64,000 bases of DNA from the NCBI GenBank assembly GCA_023150845.1, contig JAKLKD010000013.1:3896-67895 (forward strand), written 5' to 3'. The notes beneath the pieces are model-generated. The model worked only from the letters and a program-made list of their open reading frames with translations. It ran no database searches and was not told the origin of the DNA. A program made the translations under genes and the position numbers. This DNA comes from Myxococcota bacterium. GTDB taxonomy: Bacteria > Myxococcota_A > UBA796 > CAJQPC01. Shown here piece after piece: positions 5,866 to 50,576 of this stretch (position 1 is its first letter; every line of letters begins with the position of its first letter).

Positions 5866-6252
5866 TTATGGCCCGACTCTGTAGGTGTTGGTCTTGGCAT
5901 CATAGGTGATCTCCGGGTAGTTTGGCTCAGTCCTCGTGATCTCGGCGGCCACGCCGATGCCCACGAGGAAGAACACCTCAGGCTGGTAGTCCGTGAAGAC
6001 GGGCTCTACTTGTGAGATCTCCAAGCGGCCCAACATGGGGCCAGCGCGGAGAAACCCTCTCTCCAGGCGCGCTGGGCCGTCGTCAAAGCTTCGCGCTGTC
6101 CAGCAAAGCTCAAAGGCTGGGCCAGGCGTCCATCGATAGTGGACCCTCATGATTAGGCCCCAGGAGGTACGGCGGAGACGATAGGTGAAGCTTCCTTGAT
6201 TCATCTCGGCGCCTTCGTCGGGATGGTGCTCAGCCTTGTAGGCCAAGCTCAC
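5866..6252 (-). CDS. hypothetical protein
   Basis: This 128-aa ORF lies in a lower-GC stretch and has protein-like composition. I recognised no family. Confidence 0.4.
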   Translation of the reverse strand: MSLAYKAEHHPDEGAEMNQGSFTYRLRRTSWGLIMRVHYRWTPGPAFELCWTARSFDDGPARLERGFLRAGPMLGRLEISQVEPVFTDYQPEVFFLVGIGVAAEITRTEPNYPEITYDAKTNTYRVGP

Positions 6253-6348
6253 GGTCAGCTCGGCGAGGTCAGCCTCCGCGGACGCTCCGCAAGGTCAGTC
6301 AGACGCGGGATCGTAGCATGACGAGCGTGTCCTCGCGCCGCTGACATC

Positions 6349-21338: not shown

Positions 21339-23654
21339 TTGAGTATGTCGCCCGTGAGTCCGCCGAATAGGTCCTCCTCTGATCTCTTCCATGACCAGCC
21401 GATCCGCAGCGCGAAGGACGATCTCTTCGGCTGGGGTGATCTCGCGAAGCGGTTGGGTGACGCGCTGACCTTGACCTCAGAGGACCCTATCGTCATCGGG
21501 CTCTATGGCGCCTGGGGCTCAGGCAAGAGCAGCTTGATGAACATGGTGGAGGAGAGCTTGGAGGCAAAACAGCCCAAGTGGCGCCCTACCCCTGGGGTAA
21601 CGGTGCGCCAAGGCATCGACCCGGAGTTCCAAAAGGTTCTCGACAGCAAGATGAACGCCCCGATACCCCGCACGCCTGCAGCCGAGCCAGGCTGCATCAT
21701 CGTTCGGTTTAACCCTTGGTACTTCAAGGGGGAAGAGGCGCTGATCCTGGCGTTCTTTCAGGAGATGATGCTTGCCGTGAAGAGATCGCCCACGTCGAGA
21801 GCGCGAGAGCTTGTACAGGCCTTTGGCGGGTATGTGAGAACACTACTGGCCTTCGTGCCGGCGGCGGTGATGGCCGGCGTCCTCGATCCTGCATCTGTTG
21901 GGGGGGTGTTAGCCACTGCGACAAGCGAGGCGATGGCCAAGAGTGAGTCTTCGCTAGGAGAAAAACGCAGTTTTCTGATGGCCGCTCTGCGTGAGTTCAA
22001 GGTGCGGATCGTCGTGTTCATCGACGACATTGACCGTCTTTATCCCGACGATGTGTTGACGATGATGAAGCTCGTCCGCCTCGTTGGTGACCTGCCCTAT
22101 GTCTCTTACCTCTTGGGTTTTGATCAGGAGGTCGTCTCTGGGTGCTTGTCGAAGGCTGGACCGCAGACGAACGGCCGCGAGTTGGGCAAGGAGTACCTCG
22201 CGAAGATCGTACAACTTAGTGTTCAGGTTCCGACGCCTCGGGCTGACCAACTCTGCAGGTACGCGGTGGGGGAACTCGCGGCTTTGTTGCGTGACTATTA
22301 TCCATCTGAAGAGTCGGAACACTTCGCGCTTCGCCTACATAATGATTGGTCGAAGATTTTTGGGTATCGCCTACAAGACCTTCGGCAAGCCAAACGTATC
22401 GTGAACGCTATTCGGGTCGCTTTCCCGCTCACTAAGGGTAAGTTTGATCCGGTCGATGGAGTGATCTTTGAGACTCTCCGCGTGTATTCACCAGAGGCTC
22501 ACAGCTTACTCTTTGATCGCCCGGACTATCTATTTGAAGGTGAATATCCTTCCATTATTCGAGAGGGGGTTGGGACGACGAGTTCGCCGGGCCCTTTGAC
22601 TGATTTTTTGAGGTCCAACTCGAGCGCTGGTGCTGTGCTGAAAGACTTACTGCTGACTATGACTGCTAAATCCTCTCTTCCATCTCATCGTCGTGCCGGA
22701 AGAATCATGAATATGGACGATGTAAGTAAGGCGCTCAACCATGGTGTGAACCCAGCACGGGTACGGGATTGGCGTAAGGAAGCGCTGAGTAAACGTATCC
22801 AGGAACACTCGGGCGATACGTACGACATTCTGATGGCCTACAACAAGGATTGTGGTGGATGGAATGGCACGCTTAACCGCGTAAGGCATGAAGCTACGGG
22901 ATTGAATCGTGAGGTGGCCAGCGCGCTGCTCAGAATCTGCCTCGAGAAGGCGTCAGAGATCGTTCAAGAGCTCGGTTCACAGCCTTGCAGGGCTGAACTG
23001 CGTCTTGCGGAGACCTGTGCGCTCTTGATGGGCCAAGCATCATTTGGCTCAAACCCCCAAGAACAAGATTTTGTCGCTGTGTTGCGTGGGTTTCTGATGA
23101 AATCAAGCAATCTTACCGTGAGCTGGATGGTCTTTAGCTTTCTGGAGGATCTGTCTCAACGTAGTCTGCCGCAGAGCGCAGGAGGCGAGCAAGGGCCGAA
23201 GGGGAAGTCTCCATTTGAGTCTATTTTAGGTGTGTACTGTGACACGGTTCGCCATGCCGTTCGGCACTCAATGTTTCTCAAGAACTGGCTCAAAGAGCCT
23301 CCATGCGACGAGCTACGCACCGCGCTGCGCCTCATGGGCTGGCACACGCCCGCGATGGATGACGCCCGGAAAATCGACGTGCGAAGCACCATCGAGCAGT
23401 TCGATCCCAACGATTCTCGCGCTGGCTACCGTCGCATCCTCTACATTTTCTTCGCCGACGTACCTTGTAAGCCTATGGGGAAACATGGCCGCTACAGAGA
23501 CCTCGCCGAGTTCATCGACCCCAACCTCATCGCCGAGGCCCTCGGCCCTAACCCGCTCCCCGCGCCGCTCACCGCCGATCAGCTCGCCGCCCTCGCCAAC
23601 CTGCCCGACGACGAGCGCGCCCTCAAGCTCTTCTTCCACGCCCACTCGTCCTAA
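21339..23654 (+). CDS. KAP family P-loop NTPase
   Basis: The N-terminus reads DQPIRSAKDDLFGWGDLAKRLGDAL...PIVIGLYGAWGSGKSSLMNMV, with Walker B VVFIDDIDRL. The 771-aa gene has a marked GC trough in its middle (~22.3-23.3 kb). An ATG alternative start is at 21345. Confidence 0.8.
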   Translation: MSMSPVSPPNRSSSDLFHDQPIRSAKDDLFGWGDLAKRLGDALTLTSEDPIVIGLYGAWGSGKSSLMNMVEESLEAKQPKWRPTPGVTVRQGIDPEFQKVLDSKMNAPIPRTPAAEPGCIIVRFNPWYFKGEEALILAFFQEMMLAVKRSPTSRARELVQAFGGYVRTLLAFVPAAVMAGVLDPASVGGVLATATSEAMAKSESSLGEKRSFLMAALREFKVRIVVFIDDIDRLYPDDVLTMMKLVRLVGDLPYVSYLLGFDQEVVSGCLSKAGPQTNGRELGKEYLAKIVQLSVQVPTPRADQLCRYAVGELAALLRDYYPSEESEHFALRLHNDWSKIFGYRLQDLRQAKRIVNAIRVAFPLTKGKFDPVDGVIFETLRVYSPEAHSLLFDRPDYLFEGEYPSIIREGVGTTSSPGPLTDFLRSNSSAGAVLKDLLLTMTAKSSLPSHRRAGRIMNMDDVSKALNHGVNPARVRDWRKEALSKRIQEHSGDTYDILMAYNKDCGGWNGTLNRVRHEATGLNREVASALLRICLEKASEIVQELGSQPCRAELRLAETCALLMGQASFGSNPQEQDFVAVLRGFLMKSSNLTVSWMVFSFLEDLSQRSLPQSAGGEQGPKGKSPFESILGVYCDTVRHAVRHSMFLKNWLKEPPCDELRTALRLMGWHTPAMDDARKIDVRSTIEQFDPNDSRAGYRRILYIFFADVPCKPMGKHGRYRDLAEFIDPNLIAEALGPNPLPAPLTADQLAALANLPDDERALKLFFHAHSS

Positions 23655-23725
23655 CAGAGCGACAACCACCGCCACCCCCACCCAGCCCGGGTGACGGTGA
23701 CGGCGGCCGTCTCACACCACGAGGC

Positions 23726-25510
23726 TCACTCCGCGTAGAGCGCCTCGATCTCCTTCGACCAGTTCTCGTTCACCTTCTTGCGCTTGACCTTGAGCGTCGG
23801 GGTCAGCTCGTTGTCGGCGATGGTGAAGTTGCGGGGCAGGACCTTAAACTTCTTGATCTGCTCCACCTGGGCGAACTCGCGGTTCATCTCGTCGATGTGG
23901 CGCTGGATCTCCTTCTGGAGCGCCGGGCTCGTGGTGAGCTCCTCGGGCTTCACGCCGTTGGCCGCGGCCCAGGCCGGGCCCTTCTCGGGGTCGATGGTGA
24001 CCAAGGCGATGAGGAACTTGCGGCGGTCGCCGATGACGACGGCCTCGTTCACCAGCTCGTGCTGCTTGATGGCGGCCTCGAGGTTCTTCGGCGCGATGTT
24101 TTTGCCGCCCGCGGTGATGATGATCTCCTTCTTGCGGCCGGTGATGCTCAAGAACTGGTCGCTGTCAAACGCGCCCAGGTCGCCGGAGCACAGCCAGCCG
24201 TCCACCAGGGTCTCGGCGGTGGCCTGGGGCTCCTTGTAGTAGCCCAAGAAGATGTTCGGGCCCTTCACGAGGATCTCGCCGTCCTCAGCGATCTTCACCG
24301 TCACGCCGGGCAGGGCCGGGCCTACGGTGCCGAGCTTGGTGCGGCCGGGGCGGTTGATGGTCGTCGGGCCGGAGCCCTCGGACTGGCCGTAGACCTCCAG
24401 CACGATGAGGTCGAGGGAGGCGAAGAACTCCAGCACCTCTTTGCCGATGGGCGCGGCGCCGGAGACACAGACCCGGGCGCGGCCCAGGCCCACGGCGGGC
24501 TTGAGCTTCGAGTAGATGAGCTTGTTCGCCAGGGCGTACTGGAAGGCCAAGAAGCCCGAGGGCTTCTCGCCGCGCATGTTGAGCGCGTTGGCCTCGACCG
24601 CCACGCCCCGCGCCCACTCCACGAGCTTCGCCTTGACGCCCGTGGCCTCCTTGAGCTTGCCCGAGATGCCCGCGTGGAACTTCTCCCAGATGCGCGGCAC
24701 GCCGAAGAAGATCGTCGGCTGGACCTCCTTGAGGTTGTCGCCGAGCTTCTCGATGCCTTGGGCGAAGTAGACCGCGTAGCCCGAGCAGGCCGGGGCGTGG
24801 ATGGTGAACATCTGCTCGGCGATGTGCGAGAGCGGCAGGTAGCTCACCGAGCAGTCCTCAGGGCCCGCGCCGCCGACGATGTCGTTGATCGCGAGGCTCG
24901 CCGTCCAGGCGAGGTTCTCATGGGACAACATCACGCCCTTGGGCGGCCCCGTGGTGCCCGAGGTGTAGATGAAGGTGGCCAGGCCCTTGGGCTCCAGCTT
25001 GGCGATGCGGTCGTGGACCTCCTTCTCGGGGGTGCCCTCGGCCTTCGCCATGAACTGCTCCCAGGTGAGCACGAGGGGGTGCTCGACCTTCTCCGCGCCC
25101 TTCATCAAGATGACGTGCTTGAGCAGGGGCAGCTCCGAGAGCTTGGCGAGGATCTTCTCCCACTGCGCCTTGTTCTCGACGAGCACCACCGAGGACTCGG
25201 CGTGGTTCACGATGTACTGCACCTCGGTCGGGGAGCAGGTCGTGTAGATGCCCGCCGGGGCGCCGCCCGCGCACATCGCCGCCACGTCGAGGATCACCCA
25301 CTCCGGCCGGTTGAAGCCGAGGATCGACACCGTGCCGCCGGGCTGAAAGCCCAAGGAGATCAGCGCCCGGGCCGCCTGCACACACTCGGCGGCGTAGGTC
25401 TTCCAGCTTGTCGGCTCCCAGGTGGTCGCGCCACGGACGAAGTAGGCGGGCTTGTCGGCGAACTTCTGACCGTTCGAGATGATCTTGGACGGGATGCTGT
25501 CGTAGGCCAT
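23726..25510 (-). CDS. long-chain fatty-acid--CoA ligase (AMP-dependent synthetase)
   Basis: It has the AMP-binding motif YTSGTTGPPKGVMLSHENL, plus GYYKEP and SGDLG blocks. An AAGGAAG RBS precedes the ATG at 25510. Confidence 0.9.
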   Translation of the reverse strand: MAYDSIPSKIISNGQKFADKPAYFVRGATTWEPTSWKTYAAECVQAARALISLGFQPGGTVSILGFNRPEWVILDVAAMCAGGAPAGIYTTCSPTEVQYIVNHAESSVVLVENKAQWEKILAKLSELPLLKHVILMKGAEKVEHPLVLTWEQFMAKAEGTPEKEVHDRIAKLEPKGLATFIYTSGTTGPPKGVMLSHENLAWTASLAINDIVGGAGPEDCSVSYLPLSHIAEQMFTIHAPACSGYAVYFAQGIEKLGDNLKEVQPTIFFGVPRIWEKFHAGISGKLKEATGVKAKLVEWARGVAVEANALNMRGEKPSGFLAFQYALANKLIYSKLKPAVGLGRARVCVSGAAPIGKEVLEFFASLDLIVLEVYGQSEGSGPTTINRPGRTKLGTVGPALPGVTVKIAEDGEILVKGPNIFLGYYKEPQATAETLVDGWLCSGDLGAFDSDQFLSITGRKKEIIITAGGKNIAPKNLEAAIKQHELVNEAVVIGDRRKFLIALVTIDPEKGPAWAAANGVKPEELTTSPALQKEIQRHIDEMNREFAQVEQIKKFKVLPRNFTIADNELTPTLKVKRKKVNENWSKEIEALYAE

Positions 25511-25647
25511 GCATCTTCCTTGGTGGTGGAGGGGCTTGAAGTCTACATGAGAGGGGGGTGTGAGCGCAAGCGCGCCTCTGAGCTTTGGTTTCATCGGGGC
25601 TGAATGTTGCGCGGCCCGCGCGGCGGTTTTTTCGTTAGACTGCCGCC

Positions 25648-26500: not shown

Positions 26501-27502
26501 TCAGATGTGCGGGACCTGGCAAGGCCGGGCCGGGGCCGCCCCGGTGAGCAGGTCGGCCAAGGACTCGACGATGGGCAGCCCGGCGTGGTTCATCCAGGCC
26601 CACTCCCCGGCGGGGTTGACCTCCAAGAACCACAGGCGGCCCTCCTCGTCCTCCAGGATGTCGGCGGCGCCGTAGTTGAGCCCGAGGCGGTCCATGAGCC
26701 GCAGCATCGCCTGGCAGACGGGCTCGGGCAGGCTCGCCTGCTTCCAGGCGTGGACCACGCCCTTGTCGCGCAGGCTCGCGAGGCGCCAGTCGGTGCCGTA
26801 GTCCCCGGCGCTGTAGTCCAAGGCGCCGACCATCACCCGCTCGCCGACGATGGTGATCCGGTACTCCCGGCGGGTGCGCACCCGGGGCTGGAAGATCATC
26901 GGGCAGGCGGTGAGGCCGTCTAAGGCGTCGAGGTCCTCCTCCTTCACCACGGAGGTGTGCACGGCGCCGGTGCCGGCCTCCATCTGGAGGGAGAAGGCGT
27001 GCTCCATCTTGGTGATGACCTCGCCCTTGTGCTCGTGGAAGAAGGCCCGGGCGGACTCGGGGTCGTTCGTCACGAGCGTCGGCAGCACGTCGAGGCCCAC
27101 CTGGGCGGCGATGCCGAGCTGCAGGGCCTTGTCGCCGACGAGGCGGATGTGGTGGGGCCGGTCCACGACGAGGCCGGCGTGGGCGCTGGCGAGGCCGCGC
27201 AGGGTCACCCGGGACTCCTCCACCGCCGCGGCGTGGGCGTCTTGGCCCATCGAAGGATCGATCTTGGAGGAGAGGTTCACCCGGCGCCACCAGATGGACG
27301 CGCTGGCGTCGAGGGGCACCCACACGCCGTCCACCTGGATCGCGGCGCTGAGCTCGGCCCCCCGCTGGGCGCGGCGCACCATCGGCGCGTTGGGGAAGAG
27401 GTCGGTGTCGAGGCGGATCAGCCGGTGGCCCCGGCGCTTCACGGCCTCGGCGACCCAGGCCGCGCTGGGCTCTTGGGTGTGGGTGACGGCGAGCACGTCC
27501 AT
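26501..27502 (-). CDS. microviridin-type (MdnB/MdnC, MvdC/MvdD family) ATP-grasp ligase, remote copy
   Basis: The blocks RLDTDLFP, SIWWRR, GDKALQLGIAAQVGLDVLPTLVTNDPE, VITKM, CPMIFQ, EYRITIVGERV, DWR, GLNYGAADI and WFLEVNPAGEW follow the graspetide-ligase pattern. Confidence 0.8.
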   Translation of the reverse strand: MDVLAVTHTQEPSAAWVAEAVKRRGHRLIRLDTDLFPNAPMVRRAQRGAELSAAIQVDGVWVPLDASASIWWRRVNLSSKIDPSMGQDAHAAAVEESRVTLRGLASAHAGLVVDRPHHIRLVGDKALQLGIAAQVGLDVLPTLVTNDPESARAFFHEHKGEVITKMEHAFSLQMEAGTGAVHTSVVKEEDLDALDGLTACPMIFQPRVRTRREYRITIVGERVMVGALDYSAGDYGTDWRLASLRDKGVVHAWKQASLPEPVCQAMLRLMDRLGLNYGAADILEDEEGRLWFLEVNPAGEWAWMNHAGLPIVESLADLLTGAAPARPCQVPHI

Positions 27503-40504: not shown

Positions 40505-42157
40505 ATGACAACCGAACTTGACGCCTTTGGCCCTGGTCTTCCCCTAGAACCCGAGCGACCGCTGCCGCCGCTGCTCACCCGCGTCGGCCTCGTGCCGGGG
40601 GACCTGCGCGGCCGTCGGGCGCTGATCACCGGGGGCGCCCGCGGGATCGGCGCGGCGACGGCGGAGGCCCTGGCGGCCTTGGGCGCGCAGCTCGTCGTCT
40701 TCGATCGCCTGCCGGTGGACGAGCTCGCCGGGAGGGTCACCGAGGCGGGCGGGCACCTCCGCGGGGTCAACGTGGATCTCGCCGATCCCGAGGCGACCCT
40801 CGCCGCGACGACGCGTGTGCTCGCCGAGGAGGGTGAGTTTGACCTCTTCGTGCACAGCCCGGCCTTCGTGGGGCTCGGCCCGGTCACGCACCTCGCCTTG
40901 GCGGACTGGCGGCGCTCGTTCACGACGAACCTCGACTCGGCCTTCGTGATCACCCAGGCGCTGCTGCCGCGGATGTTGGCCGCGGGCCGCGGGGCGATCA
41001 CCTACCTGCTCTCGGCGGAGGGCACGCCGCTCAACTCGGGCTATGGCGCGAGCAAGGCGGCGTTACGGTCCCTGCTCCAGTCCTTGAGCGCGGAGCTGGG
41101 GCCCCAGTCGCCGGTCCACATCTTCGGCTTCGCGCCGGGCGTCGTCGACACGCCCCTCGTGCGGGAGCTGGTGCCGCGGCTCGCGGCGATGGTCGGCGCC
41201 CCGGTCGAGGCCATCCTCACGCAGATCGCGCAGAACCCGGGCTACCCGGGCCTCGTGCCCGTAGAGCATGTGGGCGCCGCCCTCGCCGCGCACCTCGTGC
41301 ACGCCCATGAGCTGCACGGTCAGGTCGCGGACTCCTTCTCCGTGCTCCGCCGGTTTGGGGTCGCGCCCTTGCCCGCGGCCCCCCTCGCCCCGGCGCCGCC
41401 CAGCGTGGTGATGCCCGAGGCCGAGAGCGACCGGGTGGTGGCGCAGATGATGAGTGAGCTGCGCACGGTCACCGACACCAACCAGAACCTTGAGCTGCGC
41501 ATCGAGCGCCGCACCCAAGAGCTCGCCCAGGAGCGGGCCCGCAGCGAGGCGCTCCTCCACGCGCTCTTGCCCCAGCCCATCGTGCCGCGGCTGCGGGAAG
41601 GGGAGGTCATCGCGGATCTGCTCCCCGAGGCCAGCGTGCTCTTCGCGGACATGCGCGGCTTCACGCCCCTGGCCGCGCGGCTCTCGCCGAGGGTCCTGCT
41701 CACGACGCTCACCCAGCTCTTTGGCGCCTTCGACGCCTTGGCCGACGAGCACCACGTCGAGAAGATCAAGACCATCGGCGACTGCTACATGGCGGCCACG
41801 GGCCTCTTCGCGGGTCGGGAGCGGCCGGTGGATGACCTCCTGCGCTTCGCTTTGGCCATTCAGCGGGCGCTCGCGGCGGTGCCGTACCCCGAGGAGGGCG
41901 GGCGTTGGGCCCTGCGTGTGGGCGTACACACCGGCCCCGCCGTCGCCGGGGTCATCGGCAACCGCCGCACGCTCTACGACCTCTGGGGCGACACGGTGAA
42001 CATCGCCAGCCGCATGGAGTCCCACGGCCTGCCCGATCGGGTGCAGGTGACCGACGCGGTGAAGGCCGCGGCCTCCCCCAGCTTTCAGTGGGAGGAGCGC
42101 CCCGGCGTCGTGGTCAAGGGCCTCGGCGAGATGCGGACCTGGTTATTGGTTGGTTGA
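40505..42157 (+). CDS. fusion protein: N-terminal SDR domain plus C-terminal class III adenylate/guanylate cyclase
   Basis: The SDR part reads RRALITGGARGIGAATAEAL...YGASKAAL. The cyclase part reads VLFADMRGFTPLAARL...VEKIKTIGDCYMAATGL...LRVGVHTGPAVAGVIG.RR..YDLWGDTVN.ASRMES. Confidence 0.8.
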   Translation: MTTELDAFGPGLPLEPERPLPPLLTRVGLVPGDLRGRRALITGGARGIGAATAEALAALGAQLVVFDRLPVDELAGRVTEAGGHLRGVNVDLADPEATLAATTRVLAEEGEFDLFVHSPAFVGLGPVTHLALADWRRSFTTNLDSAFVITQALLPRMLAAGRGAITYLLSAEGTPLNSGYGASKAALRSLLQSLSAELGPQSPVHIFGFAPGVVDTPLVRELVPRLAAMVGAPVEAILTQIAQNPGYPGLVPVEHVGAALAAHLVHAHELHGQVADSFSVLRRFGVAPLPAAPLAPAPPSVVMPEAESDRVVAQMMSELRTVTDTNQNLELRIERRTQELAQERARSEALLHALLPQPIVPRLREGEVIADLLPEASVLFADMRGFTPLAARLSPRVLLTTLTQLFGAFDALADEHHVEKIKTIGDCYMAATGLFAGRERPVDDLLRFALAIQRALAAVPYPEEGGRWALRVGVHTGPAVAGVIGNRRTLYDLWGDTVNIASRMESHGLPDRVQVTDAVKAAASPSFQWEERPGVVVKGLGEMRTWLLVG

Positions 42158-42166
42158 CCAACTAAC

Positions 42167-43141
42167 TCACCTCCTTGCCGCCCACATCGCCCCCGGGCGG
42201 CCCCGCGCCGCCGGGTTGAGGAGCAGCTCGGCGATGGCGCCGGAGGCGTCGAGGCCGATCTCGTCGAGCCAGAAGCACTCGCCGACGGGGTTCAGCTCCA
42301 AGAACACCCACTCGCCGTCCTCGGTGACGATGAAGTCGTAGGCGGCGTACTGCAGGCCGTAGGCGTCCGCCATCTTCACGCAGCTCTGCACGATGGCCTC
42401 GGGGGGCTCCAGCACCTTCCAGTCTTGGTCAAAGGTGCGGCGGAAGTCGGGCTTGTCCTTGGTGATCACCGCGTCGAGCGCTACGGGGATCACCCGGTCG
42501 CCGATGAGGGTCACCCGGGCCTCCCAGCGCCGCCCGATCACCTCGCCCTGGAAGATCATCGGGCAGGTGTCCAAGGTGTCGATGGCCTCGATGTCGTCTT
42601 GGGAGAGCCGGTTGGCGAACACCGCGCCGTCCGGGGCCGAGGCCGGGGTGAAGGGCTTGGCGATGACGGCGCCGGGCTGGGACTGGATGAAGGCCCGGGC
42701 CTCCTCGGGGTCGTTGCCGAGCCAGGTGGGCCGCAGGGTGAAGCCGAAGCCGGGGGCGTCGCGGAGCTGCCGGGGCTTGTTCGCCGCGACCCGGGCCACG
42801 AAGTTGTCATCGACGTGAGGCACATGCAGGGCGGCGAGCCAGTCCATCACCGCGCGCTCACACTCGGCGAGCATGAACCGGCGGGTGAGCTCGGGGAGGT
42901 CCTCGGGGATGGCCCGGGGGAGGTCGGGGCGGCGACCCCAGACCGCGCTGAGCTCGTCCTCACGCCACAGCCGCCCGTCGATGCGGATCGTCGCCCCCGC
43001 CGCGCCGAGGCCGAGCTGGAAGGCCTCGGGGTAACGGTCGAGGTTCAGGGTGAGGGGCGTGCCGCCGCGGGCGGTGATGGCGCGGGCGACCCAAGCGGTC
43101 CAGGGGTCCGTCGTGTTGCTGATGAGGAGGGCTGCGGGCAT
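42167..43141 (-). CDS. microviridin-type ATP-grasp ligase (graspetide maturase), precursor-adjacent copy
   Basis: The 324-aa product has the blocks LNLDRYP, SAVWGRR, NKPRQL, CPMIFQGEV, ARVTLIGDRV, GLQYAAYDFIVTEDGEWVFLELNPVGE.FW. I chose the start at Met 43141. It is transcribed divergently from the precursor genes. Confidence 0.8.
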   Translation of the reverse strand: MPAALLISNTTDPWTAWVARAITARGGTPLTLNLDRYPEAFQLGLGAAGATIRIDGRLWREDELSAVWGRRPDLPRAIPEDLPELTRRFMLAECERAVMDWLAALHVPHVDDNFVARVAANKPRQLRDAPGFGFTLRPTWLGNDPEEARAFIQSQPGAVIAKPFTPASAPDGAVFANRLSQDDIEAIDTLDTCPMIFQGEVIGRRWEARVTLIGDRVIPVALDAVITKDKPDFRRTFDQDWKVLEPPEAIVQSCVKMADAYGLQYAAYDFIVTEDGEWVFLELNPVGECFWLDEIGLDASGAIAELLLNPAARGRPGAMWAARR

Positions 43142-43305: not shown

Positions 43306-43506
43306 ATGAAACCTCCCACCCGTGTCCCCTTCTTCGCGCGCTTCGTTCAGCAGGCGCCGCCCACACTCTCCACCGAGGTCCGCGCGGGCTGGGGCCTCCC
43401 CGGCCAGAGGTTCGAGACGATGAAGCACCCCTCGGACAGCGACGAGGGTGGTCTCGTCGAGCGTGTGCGTGTGACGCTGAAGCCGACGGGCGACCGCGAC
43501 GAGTGA
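43306..43506 (+). CDS. microviridin-like graspetide precursor peptide, divergent copy (66 aa)
   Basis: The sequence is MKPPTRVPFFARFVQQAPP...ETMKHPSDSDEGG...TLKPTGDRDE. It has the PFFARF leader motif and a TxK.PSDxDE core. An AGGAG RBS is present. Confidence 0.7.
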   Translation: MKPPTRVPFFARFVQQAPPTLSTEVRAGWGLPGQRFETMKHPSDSDEGGLVERVRVTLKPTGDRDE

Positions 43507-43616
43507 CCGGCGCCCGTGAAGGGTTGGCGTAGGGTTCGGGCGAAGAGGCCCCTGGCTAAGCTGACGGGCGAGTCGAGCGCATGAAGCGCCCGATGAACCT
43601 CAGAGAGGCCACCACC

Positions 43617-43811
43617 ATGAGCAAGTCCACCCGCGTCCCGTTCTTCGCCCGCTTCATCGAGACCGAGGCCCCCAAGCTCGACACCGACGTCCGCGCTGGC
43701 GCCGACGGCGGCGGCACGACCTGGCCTCCCCAGACCATGAAGTACCCCTCCGACGCGGATGACACTTACAGCACCTTCAAGGGCGGCACGGATTACGACG
43801 AGAAGTGGTGA
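43617..43811 (+). CDS. microviridin-like graspetide precursor peptide (64 aa)
   Basis: The sequence is MSKSTRVPFFARFIETEAPKLDTDVRAGADGGGTTWPPQTMKYPSDADDTYSTFKGGTDYDEKW. A GAGAGG RBS is present. The start is chosen by homology with copies 3 and 4. Confidence 0.85.
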   Translation: MSKSTRVPFFARFIETEAPKLDTDVRAGADGGGTTWPPQTMKYPSDADDTYSTFKGGTDYDEKW

Positions 43812-43847
43812 TCCCGAGCCGCCTCGTCAGGCGGTGAAGGAGCCCAG

Positions 43848-43876
43848 GCGCCCCCGGTGAGACCCACCGGGGGCGC
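43848..43876 (+). terminator. terminator-like hairpin after precursor copy 2
   Basis: The hairpin is GCGCCCCCGGTG-AGACC-CACCGGGGGCGC, a perfect 12-bp stem, followed by TCGTCTCT. Confidence 0.55.
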
Positions 43877-44008
43877 TCGTCTCTGGGCCCCCGCGGGCTG
43901 CTCCGTGAAGGGTCCGTGAAGGGTCACAGCGCGGGACCGGGCGGCTATCCTGCTCATGTTGAGCGACGCTGACCCGCTTCGTCAGACCCACTCCGAGAGG
44001 CCACCACC

Positions 44009-44203
44009 ATGAGCAAGTCCACCCGCGTCCCGTTCTTCGCCCGTTTCATCGAGACCGAGGCCCCCAAGCTCGACACCGCCGTGCGCGCTGGCGCCGACGG
44101 CGGCGGCACGACCTGGCCCCCCCAGACCATGAAGTACCCCTCCGACGGAGAGGACACCTACGGCACCTTCAAGGGCGGCACCGAGTACGACGAGAAGTGG
44201 TAA
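44009..44203 (+). CDS. microviridin-like graspetide precursor peptide (64 aa)
   Basis: The sequence is MSKSTRVPFFARFIETEAPKLDTAVRAGADGGGTTWPPQTMKYPSDGEDTYGTFKGGTEYDEKW. Confidence 0.85.
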   Translation: MSKSTRVPFFARFIETEAPKLDTAVRAGADGGGTTWPPQTMKYPSDGEDTYGTFKGGTEYDEKW

Positions 44204-44239
44204 GCCCCAGCCGCCTCGTCAGGCGGTGAAGGAGCCCAG

Positions 44240-44268
44240 GCGCCCCCGGTGAGACCCACCGGGGGCGC
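44240..44268 (+). terminator. terminator-like hairpin after precursor copy 3
   Basis: It is the identical 12-bp-stem hairpin seen at 43848. Confidence 0.55.
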
Positions 44269-44401
44269 TCGTCTCTGGGCCCCCCGCGGGCGGCTCCGTG
44301 AAGGGTCCGTGCAGGGTCACAGCGCGGGATCGGGCGGCTACCTTGATGAGCGTTGAGCGGCGTTATCAGCTCAGCATGACTCACAAAACGAGGTCACCAC
44401 C

Positions 44402-44596
44402 ATGAGCAAGTCCACCCGCGTCCCGTTCTTCGCCCGCTTCATCGAGACCGAGGCCCCCAAGCTCGACACCGCCGTGCGCGCTGGCGCCGACGGCGGCGGC
44501 ACGACCTGGCCTCCCCAGACCCTGAAGTACCCCTCGGATGGGGATGACACCTACGGCACCTTCAAGGGCGGCACGGAGTACGACGAGAAGTGGTGA
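44402..44596 (+). CDS. microviridin-like graspetide precursor peptide (64 aa)
   Basis: The sequence is MSKSTRVPFFARFIETEAPKLDTAVRAGADGGGTTWPPQTLKYPSDGDDTYGTFKGGTEYDEKW. Confidence 0.85.
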   Translation: MSKSTRVPFFARFIETEAPKLDTAVRAGADGGGTTWPPQTLKYPSDGDDTYGTFKGGTEYDEKW

Positions 44597-44632
44597 TCCC
44601 GAGCCGCCTCGTCAGGCGGTGAAGGAGCCCAG

Positions 44633-44661
44633 GCGCCCCCGGTGAGACCCACCGGGGGCGC
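44633..44661 (+). terminator. terminator-like hairpin after precursor copy 4
   Basis: It is the identical 12-bp-stem hairpin, followed by TCGTCGTTT. Confidence 0.55.
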
Positions 44662-44668
44662 TCGTCGT

Positions 44669-44965
44669 TTAGGCCGCCGCCTGGCGCTCGGCGACGCCGC
44701 GGTGGATGAGGTAGGCGAGCAGGGCGATGGAGCCCACGAGCCCCGCGCTGATGACGTAGGGCCAGGGGTTGATGCCGCGCTGCCGAGCCTCGGGGACGAT
44801 GTAGGTGAGGCTGATGGTCGCCGAGATCACGAGGTCGAGGAAGACCTGGAGCCCCCAGCCGCTCTGGATCGACTCGACCAGCGCCCAGAGGCCGTGATCG
44901 ACGGTGATGAACACCGAGAAGATCGTGAAGGGGATGAACACCACGAGCGGGACGATGAGTCGCAT
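44669..44965 (-). CDS. small 3-TM membrane protein (DUF2834-like; family uncertain)
   Basis: An AGGAGG RBS precedes the ATG at 44965. The 98-aa product is hydrophobic (MRLIVPLVVFIPFTIFSVFITVDHGLWAL...). Confidence 0.6.
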   Translation of the reverse strand: MRLIVPLVVFIPFTIFSVFITVDHGLWALVESIQSGWGLQVFLDLVISATISLTYIVPEARQRGINPWPYVISAGLVGSIALLAYLIHRGVAERQAAA

Positions 44966-45065: not shown

Positions 45066-45863
45066 ATGACCAGCTTCCCTACGCTCCTTCGCCGCTGGCG
45101 CAGCGCCCGCGCCGCGACCCAGGCCCGGCTCGCCGCCGACGCCGAGATCTCCACCCGGCACCTGAGCTTCTTAGAGGCGGGCAAGGCCCGGCCCAGCCGC
45201 CAGATGGTGCTCTTGCTCTCCAGCGCCTTGGACCTGGAGCTGCGCGACCGCAACGCCATGCTGCTCAGCGCGGGCTTCGCGCCGATCTACAGCGAGACGC
45301 CCCTGGACGACCAGGCGATGAGCCCCGTGCGCCGGGCGATGGCCCTCGTGCTGCAGCAGCAGGAGCCCTACGGGGCGATCGCGGTGAACCGGCGCTGGGA
45401 GGTGATTCAGCTCAACCAGGGCGCGGCGCGGCTGTTCACGGCGTTTATGCCCGACCCCATCCCCGATCCCATCATCGCCCAGAACCTCGTCCACGCGATG
45501 TTCCACCCCGCGGGCCTGCGCCCGGTGATCGTCAACTGGGAGGAGCTGTGCTGGAGCTTCATCGCCCGGCTGCACCGGGAGACGGAGCTGGCCCCGGAGG
45601 GGCGAGGCCACGCCGCGCTCCTCGCCGAGCTCTCGCGGTACCCCGACGTGCCGAGCCGGGCGAGCCTCCGGGAGCTCGCGCCCCAGCCCTTCTTGACCGT
45701 TCACCTGCGGCGCCCGCCTTACGACCTGCGGCTGTTCACCGTGCTCACGGCGTTCGGCACGCCCCTGGACGTGACCGCCCAGGAGCTCACCATCGAGACC
45801 TTCTTCCCCGCGGACGAAGAGAGCGACGCCCAGCTCCGACAGATGGCGGAGGCGCTACACTGA
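45066..45863 (+). CDS. XRE-family HTH regulator with an MmyB-like ligand-binding domain
   Basis: The HTH reads LLRRWRSARAATQARLAADAEISTRHLSFLEAGKARPSRQMVLLLSSAL. It is followed by an MmyB-like C-terminal part (...PYGAIAVNRRWEVIQLNQGAARLF...). Confidence 0.7.
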   Translation: MTSFPTLLRRWRSARAATQARLAADAEISTRHLSFLEAGKARPSRQMVLLLSSALDLELRDRNAMLLSAGFAPIYSETPLDDQAMSPVRRAMALVLQQQEPYGAIAVNRRWEVIQLNQGAARLFTAFMPDPIPDPIIAQNLVHAMFHPAGLRPVIVNWEELCWSFIARLHRETELAPEGRGHAALLAELSRYPDVPSRASLRELAPQPFLTVHLRRPPYDLRLFTVLTAFGTPLDVTAQELTIETFFPADEESDAQLRQMAEALH

Positions 45864-45872
45864 GCGGCGGAG

Positions 45873-46421
45873 GTGCCTCTGTCCGCTCCGATGACCCTCA
45901 AGGACCGCGTGTTTGGCTGGCTCTCCGGGAGCTGGCGCCCGCCTTGGGCCCTGCCTGCGGCCGCCGTCGCCGCGCTCGGGCTCAGCGTCGCGCTCAACGG
46001 GATCGTCGTCGGGGTCTACGGCGTCGAGCCCGTCCCCGACCTGCTCCACCCCGCCACGCCGGAGACCCTCGTCGCCGCCCTGGACGCCTTGGGGCCGACG
46101 CTGCGCGCGGCGTACGTCAAGACGGCCTTCCTCGACGTGTTTTACCCCCTCGCGTATGGGGTCGCCATCTCCGGGGCCTTGGCCCGGCTGGCGCCCCCGG
46201 CCCTGCGCTGGCTGCCCTACCTGCTGCCGCTGACCGTCGCCGCGGACCTCACGGAGAACCTCTTTTTTGTCGGCCTCGCCGCTGAGGTCTGGCCCCGGGA
46301 CCCCGTCGTGCTGACCCTGGCCTGCGCGGCGAACGCGGTGAAGTGGCTCACCGCGGACGTCGCGATCCTGAGCATGGTCCTCCTCGGGCTCTGGCGCGCG
46401 GCGCGCTGGGCCCGGGGCTAA
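45873..46421 (+). CDS. hypothetical membrane protein
   Basis: The 182-aa product has 4-5 hydrophobic segments. I recognised no family. Confidence 0.45.
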   Translation: MPLSAPMTLKDRVFGWLSGSWRPPWALPAAAVAALGLSVALNGIVVGVYGVEPVPDLLHPATPETLVAALDALGPTLRAAYVKTAFLDVFYPLAYGVAISGALARLAPPALRWLPYLLPLTVAADLTENLFFVGLAAEVWPRDPVVLTLACAANAVKWLTADVAILSMVLLGLWRAARWARG

Positions 46422-48430
46422 CGCACCCAGAGCTCGATGGCGCCGACGCCGACGTCCTCGCTGTAGGTGAGCGAGGAGGCCTCCTCGTCGGCCATGAGGC
46501 GCACCTCGATGGCGTCGTCCGTCGAGGCGCTCAGGGTGCGCTGGAAGCTGTCCCCGGAGAAGGCCGGGGTGCTGTACCACTGGTAGCCCCAGGTCGTCGT
46601 GCTGGTGTTCCCGGTGTCGCAGGAGTAGCTCGCGCCGACGAAGCTCGGGGCGGCGTTCCCGCCGCGGTCGGGGCAGTCATAGGCGTAGCGGCCGTTGAGG
46701 GTCATGCCGACGGCGTAGGTCCAGATGTGGGTGCGGGCGCCGCTGACGCCGTGGGTGATGGAGATGCCGTCGACGTAGAGGTCCTCGACGGTGCGGCCGC
46801 TTGCGTACCAGAAGGCGTTCATGCTCGCGTACTGGTAGGCCGTGAGCGCGCCGCGCACCTCGCCGTAGGTGACGCCGAGGCTGTCAAACTCGGCGGCCGG
46901 GGCGCTCCCCCGGGCGGTGTAGCGGCGGCAGATCGCCAGGGTGCTGTCCTTCACCCAGGCGCCGGGGCAGGTGTCAACGCTGTAGTCCTCATCGGCGAGC
47001 TGGGTCCAGCCGCCGCCGTCCGTGGTCATGTCACACACCACGTCAAAGGGCGAGACGCCGACCCCGGCGCCGTCGGGGTCGATGGTGTAGACGCCGTCGC
47101 CCGTCGAGCGCCCGGCGTTGAGCACGGAGAGGCAGTCCACGCCCAGGGCGCAGGCGCCGTCGGACTCCGGGGTGACCGCGCCGTCGTCGTCGTCGCAGTC
47201 GTCGCCGCCGCAGGCCTCGTCGGAGTAGCCGTCGAGGTCGTCGTCGTTGTCGATGGCGCCGTCGCAGTCGTGGTCGAGGCCGTCACAGCCCAGGGCCGCG
47301 CCGGGGTAGACGTCGTCGGCGCCGTCCTCACAGTCCCCGCCCGCGGCGACGTAGAGGCTCGTGGGGGCCGCGCAGGCCATGAGCGCCGTGGCGTCTTGGC
47401 CGTAGCCGTCGCCGTCGAGGTCGGCGTACCAGGCGGTCTGCACGTCCTCGTCGATCTCGCCGTCACAGTCGTTGTCCACCTCGTCACAGACCTCGGCGGC
47501 GCCGGGGTAGGCGGAGTCGTCGCCGTCGTCGCAGTCTTCAGTGGTGGCGACGAAGCCGTCCGGGGCCACGCAGGCCTGCACCGCGAGGCGGGTGACGCCG
47601 ACACCGTCGCCGTCGCCATCGCCGTACCAGGTCTGGGCGTCGGCGGCGCTGGAGGGGTCCACCTCGCCGTCACAGTCGTTGTCGAGCTCATCGCAGAGCT
47701 CCAGCGCGTCGGGGTTCACCGCGCTGCGGCTGTCGTCGCAGTCGCCGTCGTCTTGGGTGTAGCCCTCGGGCGCCGCGCAGGCGTCGGTGTAAAAGTCGGG
47801 GTCGCCGAAGCCGTCGCCGTCTACGTCCTGGTGATAACGCTCGGCGTCTAAGGCGTCGGCGTCGACGCGCCCGTCGCAGTCGTTGTCGATCTCATCACAG
47901 ACCTCGGCGGCCAAGGGGTTCACCGCCCGCGCGCCGTCATCGCACTCCAGGCAGGCGGGGAAGCCGTCGGCGTCGTTGTCCTCAAAGCCTACGCTGCCGT
48001 CGCAGTTGTAGTCGTTGGGATCCGCGCAGTCGGTCTCCGTGGCGCCGGGGAAGAACGCGGCGTCCTCGTCGTCACAGTCGCCGTCTTGGGTGACCATGCT
48101 GTCGGGCAGCTCACAGGCCAAGGTGGGCGCCCCGGCGCCGTAGCCGTCCCCGTCGCCGTCGGTGTAGGCGGCGGTGGCGTCTACCGCGTCCTGATCCACC
48201 TCGCCGTCACAGTCGTTGTCGAGGCCGTCGCAGCGCTCCTCCACGCCGGGGTTCACCGCGGCGTCGTTGTCGTCGCAGTCCTCGTCGTCGGCGAAGCCGT
48301 CACCGTCCTCGTCGCTGAGCCCAGGCAAGAGGCCGGTCTCGGTGGCGGCGTCTTTGGTGTCGTCGCAGGCGTAGGCGAAGAGGGCGACGAGGGGGGCGAG
48401 CAGGCGAGCGGGGCGCAGCACGAGGGCCAT
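46418..48430 (-). CDS. lipoprotein with Cys-rich 'putative metal-binding motif' repeats and a C-terminal fibrinogen-like YCDxxxxGGGW domain
   Basis: The lipobox is LFAYAC. The repeats read CDD.DA.V.PGA.E.CD..DNDCDG.VD. The C-terminal part reads GVYTIDPDGAGVGVSPFDVVCDMTTDGGGWTQL. Confidence 0.75.
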   Translation of the reverse strand: MALVLRPARLLAPLVALFAYACDDTKDAATETGLLPGLSDEDGDGFADDEDCDDNDAAVNPGVEERCDGLDNDCDGEVDQDAVDATAAYTDGDGDGYGAGAPTLACELPDSMVTQDGDCDDEDAAFFPGATETDCADPNDYNCDGSVGFEDNDADGFPACLECDDGARAVNPLAAEVCDEIDNDCDGRVDADALDAERYHQDVDGDGFGDPDFYTDACAAPEGYTQDDGDCDDSRSAVNPDALELCDELDNDCDGEVDPSSAADAQTWYGDGDGDGVGVTRLAVQACVAPDGFVATTEDCDDGDDSAYPGAAEVCDEVDNDCDGEIDEDVQTAWYADLDGDGYGQDATALMACAAPTSLYVAAGGDCEDGADDVYPGAALGCDGLDHDCDGAIDNDDDLDGYSDEACGGDDCDDDDGAVTPESDGACALGVDCLSVLNAGRSTGDGVYTIDPDGAGVGVSPFDVVCDMTTDGGGWTQLADEDYSVDTCPGAWVKDSTLAICRRYTARGSAPAAEFDSLGVTYGEVRGALTAYQYASMNAFWYASGRTVEDLYVDGISITHGVSGARTHIWTYAVGMTLNGRYAYDCPDRGGNAAPSFVGASYSCDTGNTSTTTWGYQWYSTPAFSGDSFQRTLSASTDDAIEVRLMADEEASSLTYSEDVGVGAIELWVR

Positions 48431-48497: not shown

Positions 48498-50576
48498 TCA
48501 ACGCAGGTAAGCCGGGTAGGACATCAGCGGGCTGCCGAACTTCTCCGGGGTCGCGTCGCCGCAGTCCCGGCACTGCACGTTCACCACGGGCACCTTGACG
48601 CTGTTGATCTCAAACAGCGTGGCCTTGGAGAGCGCGCCGCCCTCGCCGCCGTTCACCGCGCAGCCGTCGGAGGTCACCTTGATGTCGTAGGGGCTGTAGC
48701 TGGAGGTGCCGTAGGACGTCTCCGTGCCGTCGAAGAAGCGGAAGCCGAAGGAGTAGTCGTAGCCGCCGCCCGCGGTGTAGTAGTAGTGGATGACGTGCTC
48801 ACAGAGGCCGACGTAGGTCTGGTTGCCCTCGGAGGAGAGCGACTGAATCGCGGTGATCTGGGCGTCGGAGAGCTCCAGGGTGAAGTCCGAGCCCAAGAAG
48901 CGGTAACGGTCGCCCCCGGTGAACTGCTGCTGGAAGGTGAGGTCGGCGGAGTACTCCACGACCGTCCAGCCGCCGCCGTCGGTGGTCATGTCGCACTCGA
49001 CGTCAAAGGGGTCGAGGCCGACGCCGAAGCCGTCGGGGTCGATGGTGTAGATGCCGTCCCCGGCGCTGTAGCCGTTCGCGAGCACGTCGAGGCAGGTCGC
49101 CCCCAAGGCGCAGCCGCCGCCGAGCTCCGGCAAGACCACGGCGTCGGTGTCGTCGCAGTCGTCGCCGCCGCAGGTCGCGTCGGCGTACCCATCGCCGTCA
49201 GCGTCGTTGTCGACGGCGCCGTCACAGTCGTAGTCGCCGCCATCACAGCCCAAGCTGGCGCCGGGGAAAGCGTCGTCGTCGCCGTCGTCACAGTCGCCAT
49301 CGGCGGCGACGTAGTCGCTCGTGGGCGGGGTGCAGGCGTCGGTGGAGCGGCTGCCGCCGTACCCGTCGCCGTCTACGTCGAGGTACCAGGTGCTCTTGAC
49401 GCCCTCATCGACGCTGCCGTCGCAGTTGTTATCGACGCCGTCGCAGGTCTCTGAGGCGCCGGTCCAGGCGGCCTCCTCGGTGTCGTCACAGTCGCCGCTG
49501 TTGTCGACGTAGCCGTCCGGCGCGCTGCACGCGGTCGTCGAGCGTTTGGGGTTGCCGTAGCCGTCCTCGTCGCTGTCGAGGTAGTAGGTGCTCGTGAGGC
49601 CCTCATCGACGGCGCCGTCGCAGTTGTTGTCGACCTCATCACAGACCTCGGTGGCGCCGTCCCAGGCCAGAGCCTCCTTGTCGTTGCAGTCGCCGTCGTT
49701 CTCGACGGTGCCCGCGGGCTGCTCACAGCTCGCCTTGCCCGTGGCGGGGTCCCCGTAGCTGTCGCCGTCGCGGTCGGAGTAATAGGTCACGGCGTCGATG
49801 GGGTCGTCGTCCGCGGCGCCGTCACAGTCGTTGTCGACGCTGTCGCAGAGCTCATCGGCGCCGGGGTTGGTGGTCGCGGTCGCGTCGTCGCAGTCCCCGT
49901 CCTCGGCGGCGTAACCCTCCGGGGTGTCGCAGGACTCCTGGGCGAAGTCCGTGTCGCCGTAGCCGTCGGCGTCGGCGTCTTGGTACCAGGTCCCGGCGTC
50001 TACGGCGCCGACGTCGGCCTCGCCGTCACAGTTGTTGTCGACGTCATCGCAGATCTCCGTCGCCGAGGGGTTCACCGCCCGGCTGCCGTCGTCACACTCC
50101 TCACAGGCGGCGAAGCCGTCGCCGTCCGCGTCGGTGAGGCCGGAGGAGCCGTCACAGTTGTAGTCCGTGGGGTCGAGGCAGTCGTCCTCGGGGGCGTCGG
50201 GGTAGATCGTGGCGTCTTGGTCATCACAGTCGCCGAACGCGCTCGCGTAGCCCTCGGGGGCCTCGCAAGCGGTCTCGGTGTAGCTCTCGACGCCGTACCC
50301 GTCGCCGTCGGCGTCGGCGTAGAAGGTCGCCGCGTCGGTGGCGTCCTCGTCGGCGTCGCCGTCGCAGTCGTTGTCGAGGCCGTCGCAGGTCTCGGCGGCG
50401 CCGCTGTTCACCGCGGCGTTGGTGTCGTCACAGTCGTCCTCCCCGGTGAAGCCGTCGCCGTCCTCATCGACGGTCTGGGGCTCGGTATCGACGTTGGTGT
50501 CGATGACCACGTCCTTGTCGTCGGATCGACAGCCGAGGGCGAACAAGGTGAGGACGAAGAGAGCGGTCGTGCGCAT
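48498..50576 (-). CDS. paralogous lipoprotein with metal-binding-motif repeats and a fibrinogen-like YCDxxxxGGGW domain
   Basis: The lipobox is LFALGC. It has the same repeat type. The C-terminal part reads GIYTIDPDGFGVGLDPFDVECDMTTDGGGWTVV. Confidence 0.75.
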   Translation of the reverse strand: MRTTALFVLTLFALGCRSDDKDVVIDTNVDTEPQTVDEDGDGFTGEDDCDDTNAAVNSGAAETCDGLDNDCDGDADEDATDAATFYADADGDGYGVESYTETACEAPEGYASAFGDCDDQDATIYPDAPEDDCLDPTDYNCDGSSGLTDADGDGFAACEECDDGSRAVNPSATEICDDVDNNCDGEADVGAVDAGTWYQDADADGYGDTDFAQESCDTPEGYAAEDGDCDDATATTNPGADELCDSVDNDCDGAADDDPIDAVTYYSDRDGDSYGDPATGKASCEQPAGTVENDGDCNDKEALAWDGATEVCDEVDNNCDGAVDEGLTSTYYLDSDEDGYGNPKRSTTACSAPDGYVDNSGDCDDTEEAAWTGASETCDGVDNNCDGSVDEGVKSTWYLDVDGDGYGGSRSTDACTPPTSDYVAADGDCDDGDDDAFPGASLGCDGGDYDCDGAVDNDADGDGYADATCGGDDCDDTDAVVLPELGGGCALGATCLDVLANGYSAGDGIYTIDPDGFGVGLDPFDVECDMTTDGGGWTVVEYSADLTFQQQFTGGDRYRFLGSDFTLELSDAQITAIQSLSSEGNQTYVGLCEHVIHYYYTAGGGYDYSFGFRFFDGTETSYGTSSYSPYDIKVTSDGCAVNGGEGGALSKATLFEINSVKVPVVNVQCRDCGDATPEKFGSPLMSYPAYLR

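Follow-up and report, generated by a model that had tools for sequence, protein, structure and literature searches.

A conserved KYPSD-less tail motif with microviridin cage spacing in tandem graspetide precursors of a Myxococcota bacterium: a candidate second core

Four open reading frames (ORFs) encoding microviridin-family precursors lie on the plus strand at positions 43306-44596 of a 64 kb stretch of Myxococcota DNA (contig JAKLKD010000013.1; the whole stretch is referred to as the window), divergently oriented from one MvdD-like ATP-grasp ligase gene. Each precursor carries one canonical KYPSD-type core followed by a C-terminal second unit, the tail motif, which fits the spacing of the ring-forming residues while its spelling departs from KYPSD. 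This pattern is genuine and non-random. We read it, with somewhat more confidence than doubt, as a diverged second core: a quasi core of full length in a graspetide precursor of the microviridin class. The cross-links, the origin by duplication and the function as an inhibitor that are discussed below are all inferred from sequence comparison.

The precursors fall into two types, A (copy 1) and B (copies 2-4). All four share a VPFFARF(I/V) leader helix motif and a first motif matching TxKxPSDx(D/E)(D/E), and the three type B copies end in T(M/L)KYPSD(G/A)(E/D)D-TY(G/S)-TFKGGT(E/D)YDE-KW. Their arrangement is as follows, all on the plus strand:

43306-43506, copy 1 (type A), 66 residues, with the PFFARF leader
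43417-43446, copy 1 canonical core TMKHPSDSDE, preceded by E
43474-43503, copy 1 tail motif TLKPTGDRDE, after the nine-residue linker GGLVERVRV
43617-43811, copy 2 (type B), 64 residues from MSKST
43734-43763, copy 2 core TMKYPSDADD, followed by the linker TYS
43773-43802, copy 2 tail motif TFKGGTDYDE, then KW
44009-44203, copy 3 (type B), 64 residues
44126-44155, copy 3 core TMKYPSDGED, followed by the linker TYG
44165-44194, copy 3 tail motif TFKGGTEYDE, then KW
44402-44596, copy 4 (type B), 64 residues
44519-44548, copy 4 core TLKYPSDGDD, followed by the linker TYG
44558-44587, copy 4 tail motif TFKGGTEYDE, then KW

The Pfam family PF12559 (Inhibitor_I10, microviridin and marinostatin precursors) recognizes copies 2, 3 and 4 at 34.4, 34.2 and 30.1 bits, above its cut-off of 21, and copy 1 at 20.6 bits, marginally under it. 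Since the model stops at residue 49, the last 15-19 residues, which make up the tail, fall outside the known family model. Shine-Dalgarno-like sites precede all four ORFs (in copy 2, GAGAGG ahead of the ATG at 43617); together with the existence of orthologues they rule out a frame or annotation artefact.

A search of the six-frame translation of the window with T.K..[ST][DE].[DE][DE] gives seven matches, every one of them inside the four precursors: the four canonical cores and the three type B tails. The relaxed version beginning [ST].[KR] returns the same seven. When the 15-residue type B tail was shuffled with its composition preserved, the full pattern arose in 46 of 400,000 trials (1.15e-4), and for two type A tails the five-position pattern arose in 3.4e-4 and 6.5e-5 of trials. 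On the window-wide search and the shuffles, a chance origin of the tail pattern is rejected. The peptide endings quoted in a preliminary description of this DNA are exact in both letters and position, and the type B tail does reproduce all six cage positions of the core, as had been claimed there. Equally sound was its remark that the KYPSD identity is lost: numbering the motif from its Thr, P5 is absent from the tails and position 6 is T or G, with position 7 being E in type B, so that the tails do not fit the canonical core definition.

For comparison we assembled related loci from genome and metagenome scans (L001-L003, L004, L005, L006, L007, L009, L010, L011 and L013); L001 sits on an 872 kb contig, L004 is labelled as a Myxococcota metagenome-assembled genome (MAG), and L005 and L006 are labelled as Deltaproteobacteria MAGs. 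Wherever a locus reaches the ligase side (L001, L002, L004, L005, L006, L007), it has one adjacent ligase, 89-97% identical to that of the window, and then 3-4 precursors. A word-indexed protein search returned, for type B, 15 homologues of full length (75-95% identity), each from a metagenome or MAG, and a single non-self homologue of copy 1; type A orthologues are found in L004, L006, L007, L010 and L013, and as the proteins P0020 and P0034. Type A combines a nine-residue linker with the tail T-[LI]-K-P-x-G-D-x-D-[DE], and type B a three-residue linker with T-[FLYV]-K-G-G-T-[ED]-Y-D-E-[KRT]-W. A type C, found in sister loci, has a single core and no tail, ending in ...TKKYPSDQDD(E)VKW. It corresponds to type B minus exactly 12 residues (two of the linker and the ten of the tail motif) with the terminal KW retained, a difference that fits internal duplication, or loss, of a core-sized block. 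Cluster make-up varies from genome to genome: the window is without type C and L001 without type A. In L005 (9257-9508) and L006 (9129-9380), type B-like genes of a long-read MAG are frameshifted past the leader and are either assembly indel errors or real pseudogenes.

The conservation set comprises 28 unique type B and seven unique type A proteins from at least seven related Myxococcota-type loci. T1, K3, an acidic residue at 7, D9 and an acidic residue at 10 are kept in the tails of all 35. Each of these PFFARF-led precursors accordingly has, in a segment without KYPSD, a Thr and an acidic residue at i/i+6 (T1/E7 in type B, T1/D7 in type A). Among orthologues the tail motif is thus neither absent nor randomly spaced; either outcome would, according to the preliminary description, have refuted its reading. 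In type B no variation occurs at T1, K3, G4, G5, T6, Y8, D9 and E10, and position 7 has E in 27 proteins and D in one; position 2 alone shows more than one substitution (F in 16, L in 8, Y in 3, V in 1). In type A, T1, K3, P4, G6, D7 and D9 never change, E or D stands at position 10, and positions 2, 5 and 8 vary. Aligned with MAFFT, the two tail families are in register and coincide at five of the six canonical ring positions (T1, K3, acidic 7, D9 and acidic 10); they also share a hydrophobic position 2 and differ at positions 4, 5, 6 and 8. An argument had been made from conserved spacing with differing filler residues to function: it finds support between the two families, which share five ring positions, but not within type B, where the fillers are equally invariant. 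The earlier suggestion that copy 1 shifts its second hydroxyl residue to position 5 has to be abandoned, as position 5 is T, G, R or A across orthologues and position 6 an invariant Gly; type A tails therefore have no second hydroxyl.

At the codon level, a usable signal is found only in the type A set of five genes. There the tail has a proportion of synonymous differences (pS) of 0.30, with replacements confined to positions 2, 5, 8 and 10 and with G6 encoded by three synonymous codons. In the precursors the tail stands beside fast-changing flanks: the ratio of nonsynonymous to synonymous differences (pN/pS) is 3.7 in the linker and 1.3 in the ten residues ahead of core 1.

In microviridins, P1 specificity is set by the residue that lies between T and K (PMC7823629). 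In core 1 this residue is K, M or L and in the tail F, L, Y or V, in seven combinations. Such a pattern, with the tail P1 recombining freely with that of core 1, would be expected of a two-headed inhibitor subject to diversifying pressure. Three type B variants (P0010, P0015; L007 1453-1650, 2202-2396) have the core 1 Ser replaced by Cys (KYPCD) with the tail unchanged; this could mean a thioester ring, or a lost small lactone in cage 1.

How far the family at large shares this architecture can be judged from a profile search of 1.84 billion representative proteins, which gave 176 family members at E <= 1e-3, 150 of them listed. Among those 150 listed members, only two clusters, P0004 (type B) and P0034 (type A), have a non-KYPSD second motif with cage spacing. 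Multi-core precursors make up 147 of 198 sampled family members, and their units all repeat KYPSD, as the preliminary description says of multi-core precursors; a published exception is the non-KYPSD quasi core TGKLRDE of AMdnA (PMC5934393). Linkers in the 147 multi-core relatives are 2-4 residues long in 34% of cases and 8-10 residues long in 17%, and both the three-residue type B and the nine-residue type A linker are within the populated range of true inter-core linkers.

Two ATP-grasp ligases are encoded in the window, both on the minus strand:

42167-43141, adjacent ligase, about 324 residues from MPAALLISN..., start set by orthologue comparison (longest ORF to 43288)
26501-27502, distal ligase, 333 residues, 34% identical to the adjacent ligase (tblastn)

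The adjacent ligase scores 41.3 bits with the MvdD pre-ATP-grasp domain (PF21068; cut-off 27). Its best PDB match is MdnC (5IG9, 125.9 bits), with MdnB (5IG8) at 113.2, and the NCBIfam models score it at 175.5 (MvdD) and 150.2 (MvdC). The distal ligase scores 169.6 bits with MdnB 5IG8 and 164.9 with MdnC 5IG9, and 268.5 (MvdD) and 231.5 (MvdC) with NCBIfam. The PDB scores are too close to type the ligases decisively, and while the NCBIfam scores lean towards MvdD for both, they are far under the curated equivalog cut-offs (475 for MvdD); as a control, a cyanobacterial locus (L008) scores cleanly at 511 (MvdC) and 544 (MvdD). The acidic pair aligned to MdnC E191/D192 is DD in the adjacent and ED in the distal ligase; in MdnC this pair reportedly binds a leader Arg, a finding ascribed to Li et al. 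2016. MyxD2, in which the leader-binding Glu and Asp are substituted, is inactive on its own (PMC12848669).

Some 15 kb separate the distal ligase gene from the precursor array; no precursor adjoins it, and it lies between a lipoprotein gene and an SGNH-like lipoprotein gene. Relatives sharing 53-58% identity with it are found in microviridin-type clusters with three ligases (L065, L067), where they are accompanied by a homologue of the adjacent type and by an MvdC-leaning ligase, along with a C39 peptidase in L067 and a KYPSD precursor in L065. Since the two ligase lineages work together elsewhere, the distal ligase could act in trans here. A search aimed at the closest relative, L001 with its 872 kb contig, returned no close orthologue of it on a long contig.

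We propose the following scheme for the diverged second core. The ancestor would have been a single-core precursor ending in ...TxKYPSDxDD-(x)KW, like type C of the sister clusters, in which internal duplication of about 12 residues produced a second core; one copy would then have lost the KYPSD spelling and kept the ring-forming residues. Intragenic duplications and losses of lactone-forming fragments of 6-10 residues are among the most frequent events in the family (Makarova et al., PMC8939145). The single PFFARF leader would dock the adjacent MvdD-like ligase, which would act distributively on both motifs. Core 1 is predicted to carry two lactones, T1-D7 and S6-D/E9; the type B tail up to two, T1-E7 and T6-D9; and the type A tail, with Gly at position 6, one, T1-D7. 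Lactams between K3 and the acidic residue 10 would require amide formation by one or other of the two MvdD-like ligases; some graspetide synthetases form esters, amides and thioesters (PMC13097080). The product may be one tandem two-cage, double-headed serine-protease inhibitor or two cages split by proteolysis, with P1 set by the residue between T and K (K/M/L in cage 1, F/L/Y/V in cage 2). The preliminary description had allowed for up to six macrocycles. With two MvdD-leaning ligases, no MvdC type in the window and no second hydroxyl in type A, that number finds no support, and four lactones (type B) or three (type A) are better supported. The publication of a non-canonical quasi core for AMdnA gives the idea a precedent. 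Taken in full detail, as a single tandem two-cage graspetide made by the divergent MvdD-like ligase, possibly helped in trans by its distal paralogue, with a KYPSD cage and, 3 or 9 residues on, a KYPSD-less cage (KGGTE or KPxGD), the whole being a double-headed serine-protease inhibitor whose P1 residues evolve independently, the proposal is tentative, and we doubt that all of its parts will hold together.

Several observations count against a second core. The tail is without Y4 and P5, and MdnC has been described as KYPSD-dependent (PMC7823629); in type A the second hydroxyl is missing as well. The non-ring residues G4, G5, Y8 and W of the type B tail are as invariant as its ring residues, so that the ring positions do not stand out there by conservation. 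Codon analysis of type B gives a pS of 0.068 for the tail against 0.355 for core 1, and with near-zero synonymous variation the invariance of the amino acids is not attributable to protein-level selection; it may stem from shallow divergence, from gene conversion in the tandem array described below, or from codon bias. At the DNA level, core 1 and the tail match at 17 of 30 bases, 14 of which are forced by shared residues (manual count), and this comparison yields no independent signal of duplication. No MvdC/MdnB-type amide ligase is recognizable in the 64 kb window, where the only two ATP-grasp ligases both lean towards MvdD, and the invariant tail Lys is therefore not explained by a lactam on present evidence. 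This ester/amide typing does not settle the chemistry, however, since the MvdD-like MyxD1 makes lactams (PMC12848669). Finally, followers of 4-10 residues, often aromatic-rich, are the rule in the family, and in the myxomiditide system the follower CYIW is removable (PMC12848669).

These last points lead to what we regard as a serious though clearly less probable explanation: that the tail is a conserved follower that is not cross-linked and serves as a protease contact surface, as a helper of the ligase on core 1, or as a processing or export signal, its cage spacing being inherited from an old duplication and no longer ring-forming. The invariance of the whole type B tail and the loss of KYPSD are what such a follower would lead one to expect, and the AMdnA quasi core, the removal of which abolished processing "in an unclear manner" (PMC5934393), illustrates that such segments can matter without being products. 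A follower would nevertheless leave unexplained why T1, K3, acidic 7, D9 and acidic 10 are shared by two tail families with different fillers and linkers, and why the P1 equivalent is the sole substantially varying position of the type B tail; nor does any other follower with the pattern occur among the roughly 150 family representatives listed.

Two further explanations seem to us improbable, the second markedly more so. Tail residues might be cross-linked to the first motif or with some other connectivity, giving a new topology in place of an independent second cage. The type B motifs are only three residues apart, graspetide topologies are diverse, some ligases accept several nucleophile types (PMC13097080), and the Ser-to-Cys exchange in core 1 hints at flexible residue use. 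The cores of AMdnA, however, are processed independently, and its authors saw no evidence for inter-core lactones (PMC5934393); the conserved i/i+6, i+5/i+8 and i+2/i+9 spacing in the tail is most simply that of a cage within the motif. The tail could also be a functionless, decaying relic of a duplicated core, the explanation we disfavour most. Decayed units do exist in multi-core precursors of other lineages (TNKFRDKHDW / TNKFRDKYDW in L021 and L057, about 5974-6294), but the ring pattern is gone from those relics, whereas here it is intact in 35 of 35 unique proteins beside a fast-changing linker and pre-core, and the type A tail shows synonymous change at its fixed Gly.

The type B genes form part of a tandem array with conserved structures downstream of each gene:

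43604-44666, plus strand, tandem array with a 393-bp unit, 2.7 copies, 92% matches (Tandem Repeats Finder)
43812-43877, 44204-44280 and 44597-44662, hairpin pairs directly 3' of the type B stop codons, with none after copy 1

Each 393-bp unit consists of one type B gene and a conserved GC-rich hairpin pair just 3' of its stop codon. The hairpins have folding energies of -46 to -53 kcal/mol (z-scores -4.0 to -4.8). A scan of the array for consensus promoters and terminators found nothing; lacking a T-run, the hairpins are missed by the terminator scan. They probably terminate transcription or stabilise the mRNA of small genes that are expressed at a very high level.

Around the ligase and the array the window contains the following:

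40505-42157, plus strand, short-chain dehydrogenase fused to an adenylate/guanylate cyclase domain, in the slot at the 3' end of the ligase gene
44669-44965, minus strand, small protein of about 98 residues that looks hydrophobic, no Pfam match
45066-45863, plus strand, MmyB-like helix-turn-helix (HTH) regulator (PF17765, 7.6e-30, plus HTH_31)
45873-46421, plus strand, small protein, no Pfam match
46418-48430 and 48498-50576, minus strand, two large secreted-looking proteins with D-x-D-G-D / C-D-D repeats

The MmyB-type regulator is syntenic with the precursor array in L001 and L002, and the two small proteins that flank it have counterparts of similar size (97 and 180 residues) at the same positions in both loci. 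The pair of repeat-rich proteins downstream of the cluster is likewise syntenically conserved, with matches to Cu-binding_MopE on the L001 orthologues. The slot at the ligase 3' end is variable, being occupied by a thiamine pyrophosphate (TPP) enzyme and a ketoacyl synthase (KAS) III-like gene in L001 (6109-8841) and L002, with the outer flanks syntenic. Among the genes called around the syntenic cluster we saw no exporter, no C39 peptidase and no GNAT gene. Elsewhere, the G+C content dips to 0.57 at 22001-24000, against about 0.70 in the rest of the window, overlapping an acyl-CoA synthetase-like gene (23726-25594, minus strand) in its 3' part.

Microviridin-type cages are compact, potent serine-protease inhibitors and widely used engineering scaffolds, and TxKxPSDx(D/E)(D/E) is the pattern by which genomes are mined for them. 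If the tail is cross-linked, the KYPSD spelling would not be needed by the ring-forming ligases, which would widen both the mining rules and the design space. The precursors would then specify a natural tandem inhibitor with two specificities on a peptide of about 30 residues, and one ligase with a 64-residue precursor would make a minimal system for the direction of two unlike motifs by one leader. If the tail is not cross-linked, it is still a conserved follower element within a single clade of Myxococcota that are uncultured. The flexibility known for these ligases makes the finding no great surprise, yet it is specific and conserved.

Among related systems, the ester-only members of the marinostatin type resemble the present one in having an MvdD-like ligase without an adjoining MvdC/MdnB, a PFFARF leader and a TxK/RxPSDxDE core. 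Marinostatin has one core and is not known to carry a second motif. The precursors described here, unlike marinostatin, keep K3 and acidic 10 in both motifs. Absence of MdnB is common and likely gives marinostatin-type, amide-free products (review, PMC7823629). As inhibitors, the predicted products would find a functional analogy in proteins unrelated to them in sequence. Bowman-Birk inhibitors are double-headed, with two independent reactive loops of different P1 residues, and are stabilised by disulfides; they do not belong to the RiPPs (peptides synthesized on the ribosome and then modified post-translationally).

Known microviridin classes either add rings N-terminal of the cage, TxxxxD in class 2 and (KxxE)n in class 3, or repeat the canonical unit (PMC12848669). 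Chryseoviridin, of class 2, is like the present precursors in carrying two differently spelled motifs; the dual-function CdnC is, to judge by how Zhao et al. 2021 titled their paper (reference in PMC8939145), one ligase that rings both. The extra motif there is a TxxxxD single small ring N-terminal of each TxKxPSDx(D/E)(D/E) cage (PMC12848669), not a second copy of a whole cage. The class 3 myxomiditides, found in a Myxococcota MAG of deep-sea origin (Li et al. 2026, PMC12848669), share with our system the Myxococcota origin, a cage together with extra ring-forming residues in one precursor, and several MvdD-like ligases; their large Thr-Glu and small Ser-Asp rings have the arrangement of E7 and D9 in the type B tail. 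In that system a dedicated ligase subclade (MyxF), among four ligases including an MvdC type, installs the extra rings as KxxE lactams on the N-terminal side, whereas here the extra motif is C-terminal and cage-spaced and there is one adjacent ligase.

The closest parallel is AMdnA of Anabaena PCC 7120, the three cores of which are processed from one leader by AMdnC, and the quasi core of which takes one lactone, Thr to Glu (Zhang et al. 2018, PMC5934393). Both systems have one PFFARF leader for several motifs and a non-KYPSD motif with the T1...acidic 7 spacing, and in AMdnA the MdnC-type ligase acts distributively. The AMdnA quasi core has seven residues, lies between canonical cores and allows one ring, unlike the tail described here, which in type B has the full ten-residue cage pattern, is C-terminal, is the sole second unit, is conserved across a family and has no MdnB/MvdC partner. 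A full-text literature search for tail strings (KGGTEYDE and others), which did not cover Ahmed et al. 2017 and Zhao et al. 2021, found no paper. What appears to be new, as far as sequences can tell, is a complete ten-residue cage pattern of different spelling, placed C-terminally as the sole second unit, conserved in two sub-families of one Myxococcota clade and apparently served by a single adjacent, divergent MvdD-like ligase.

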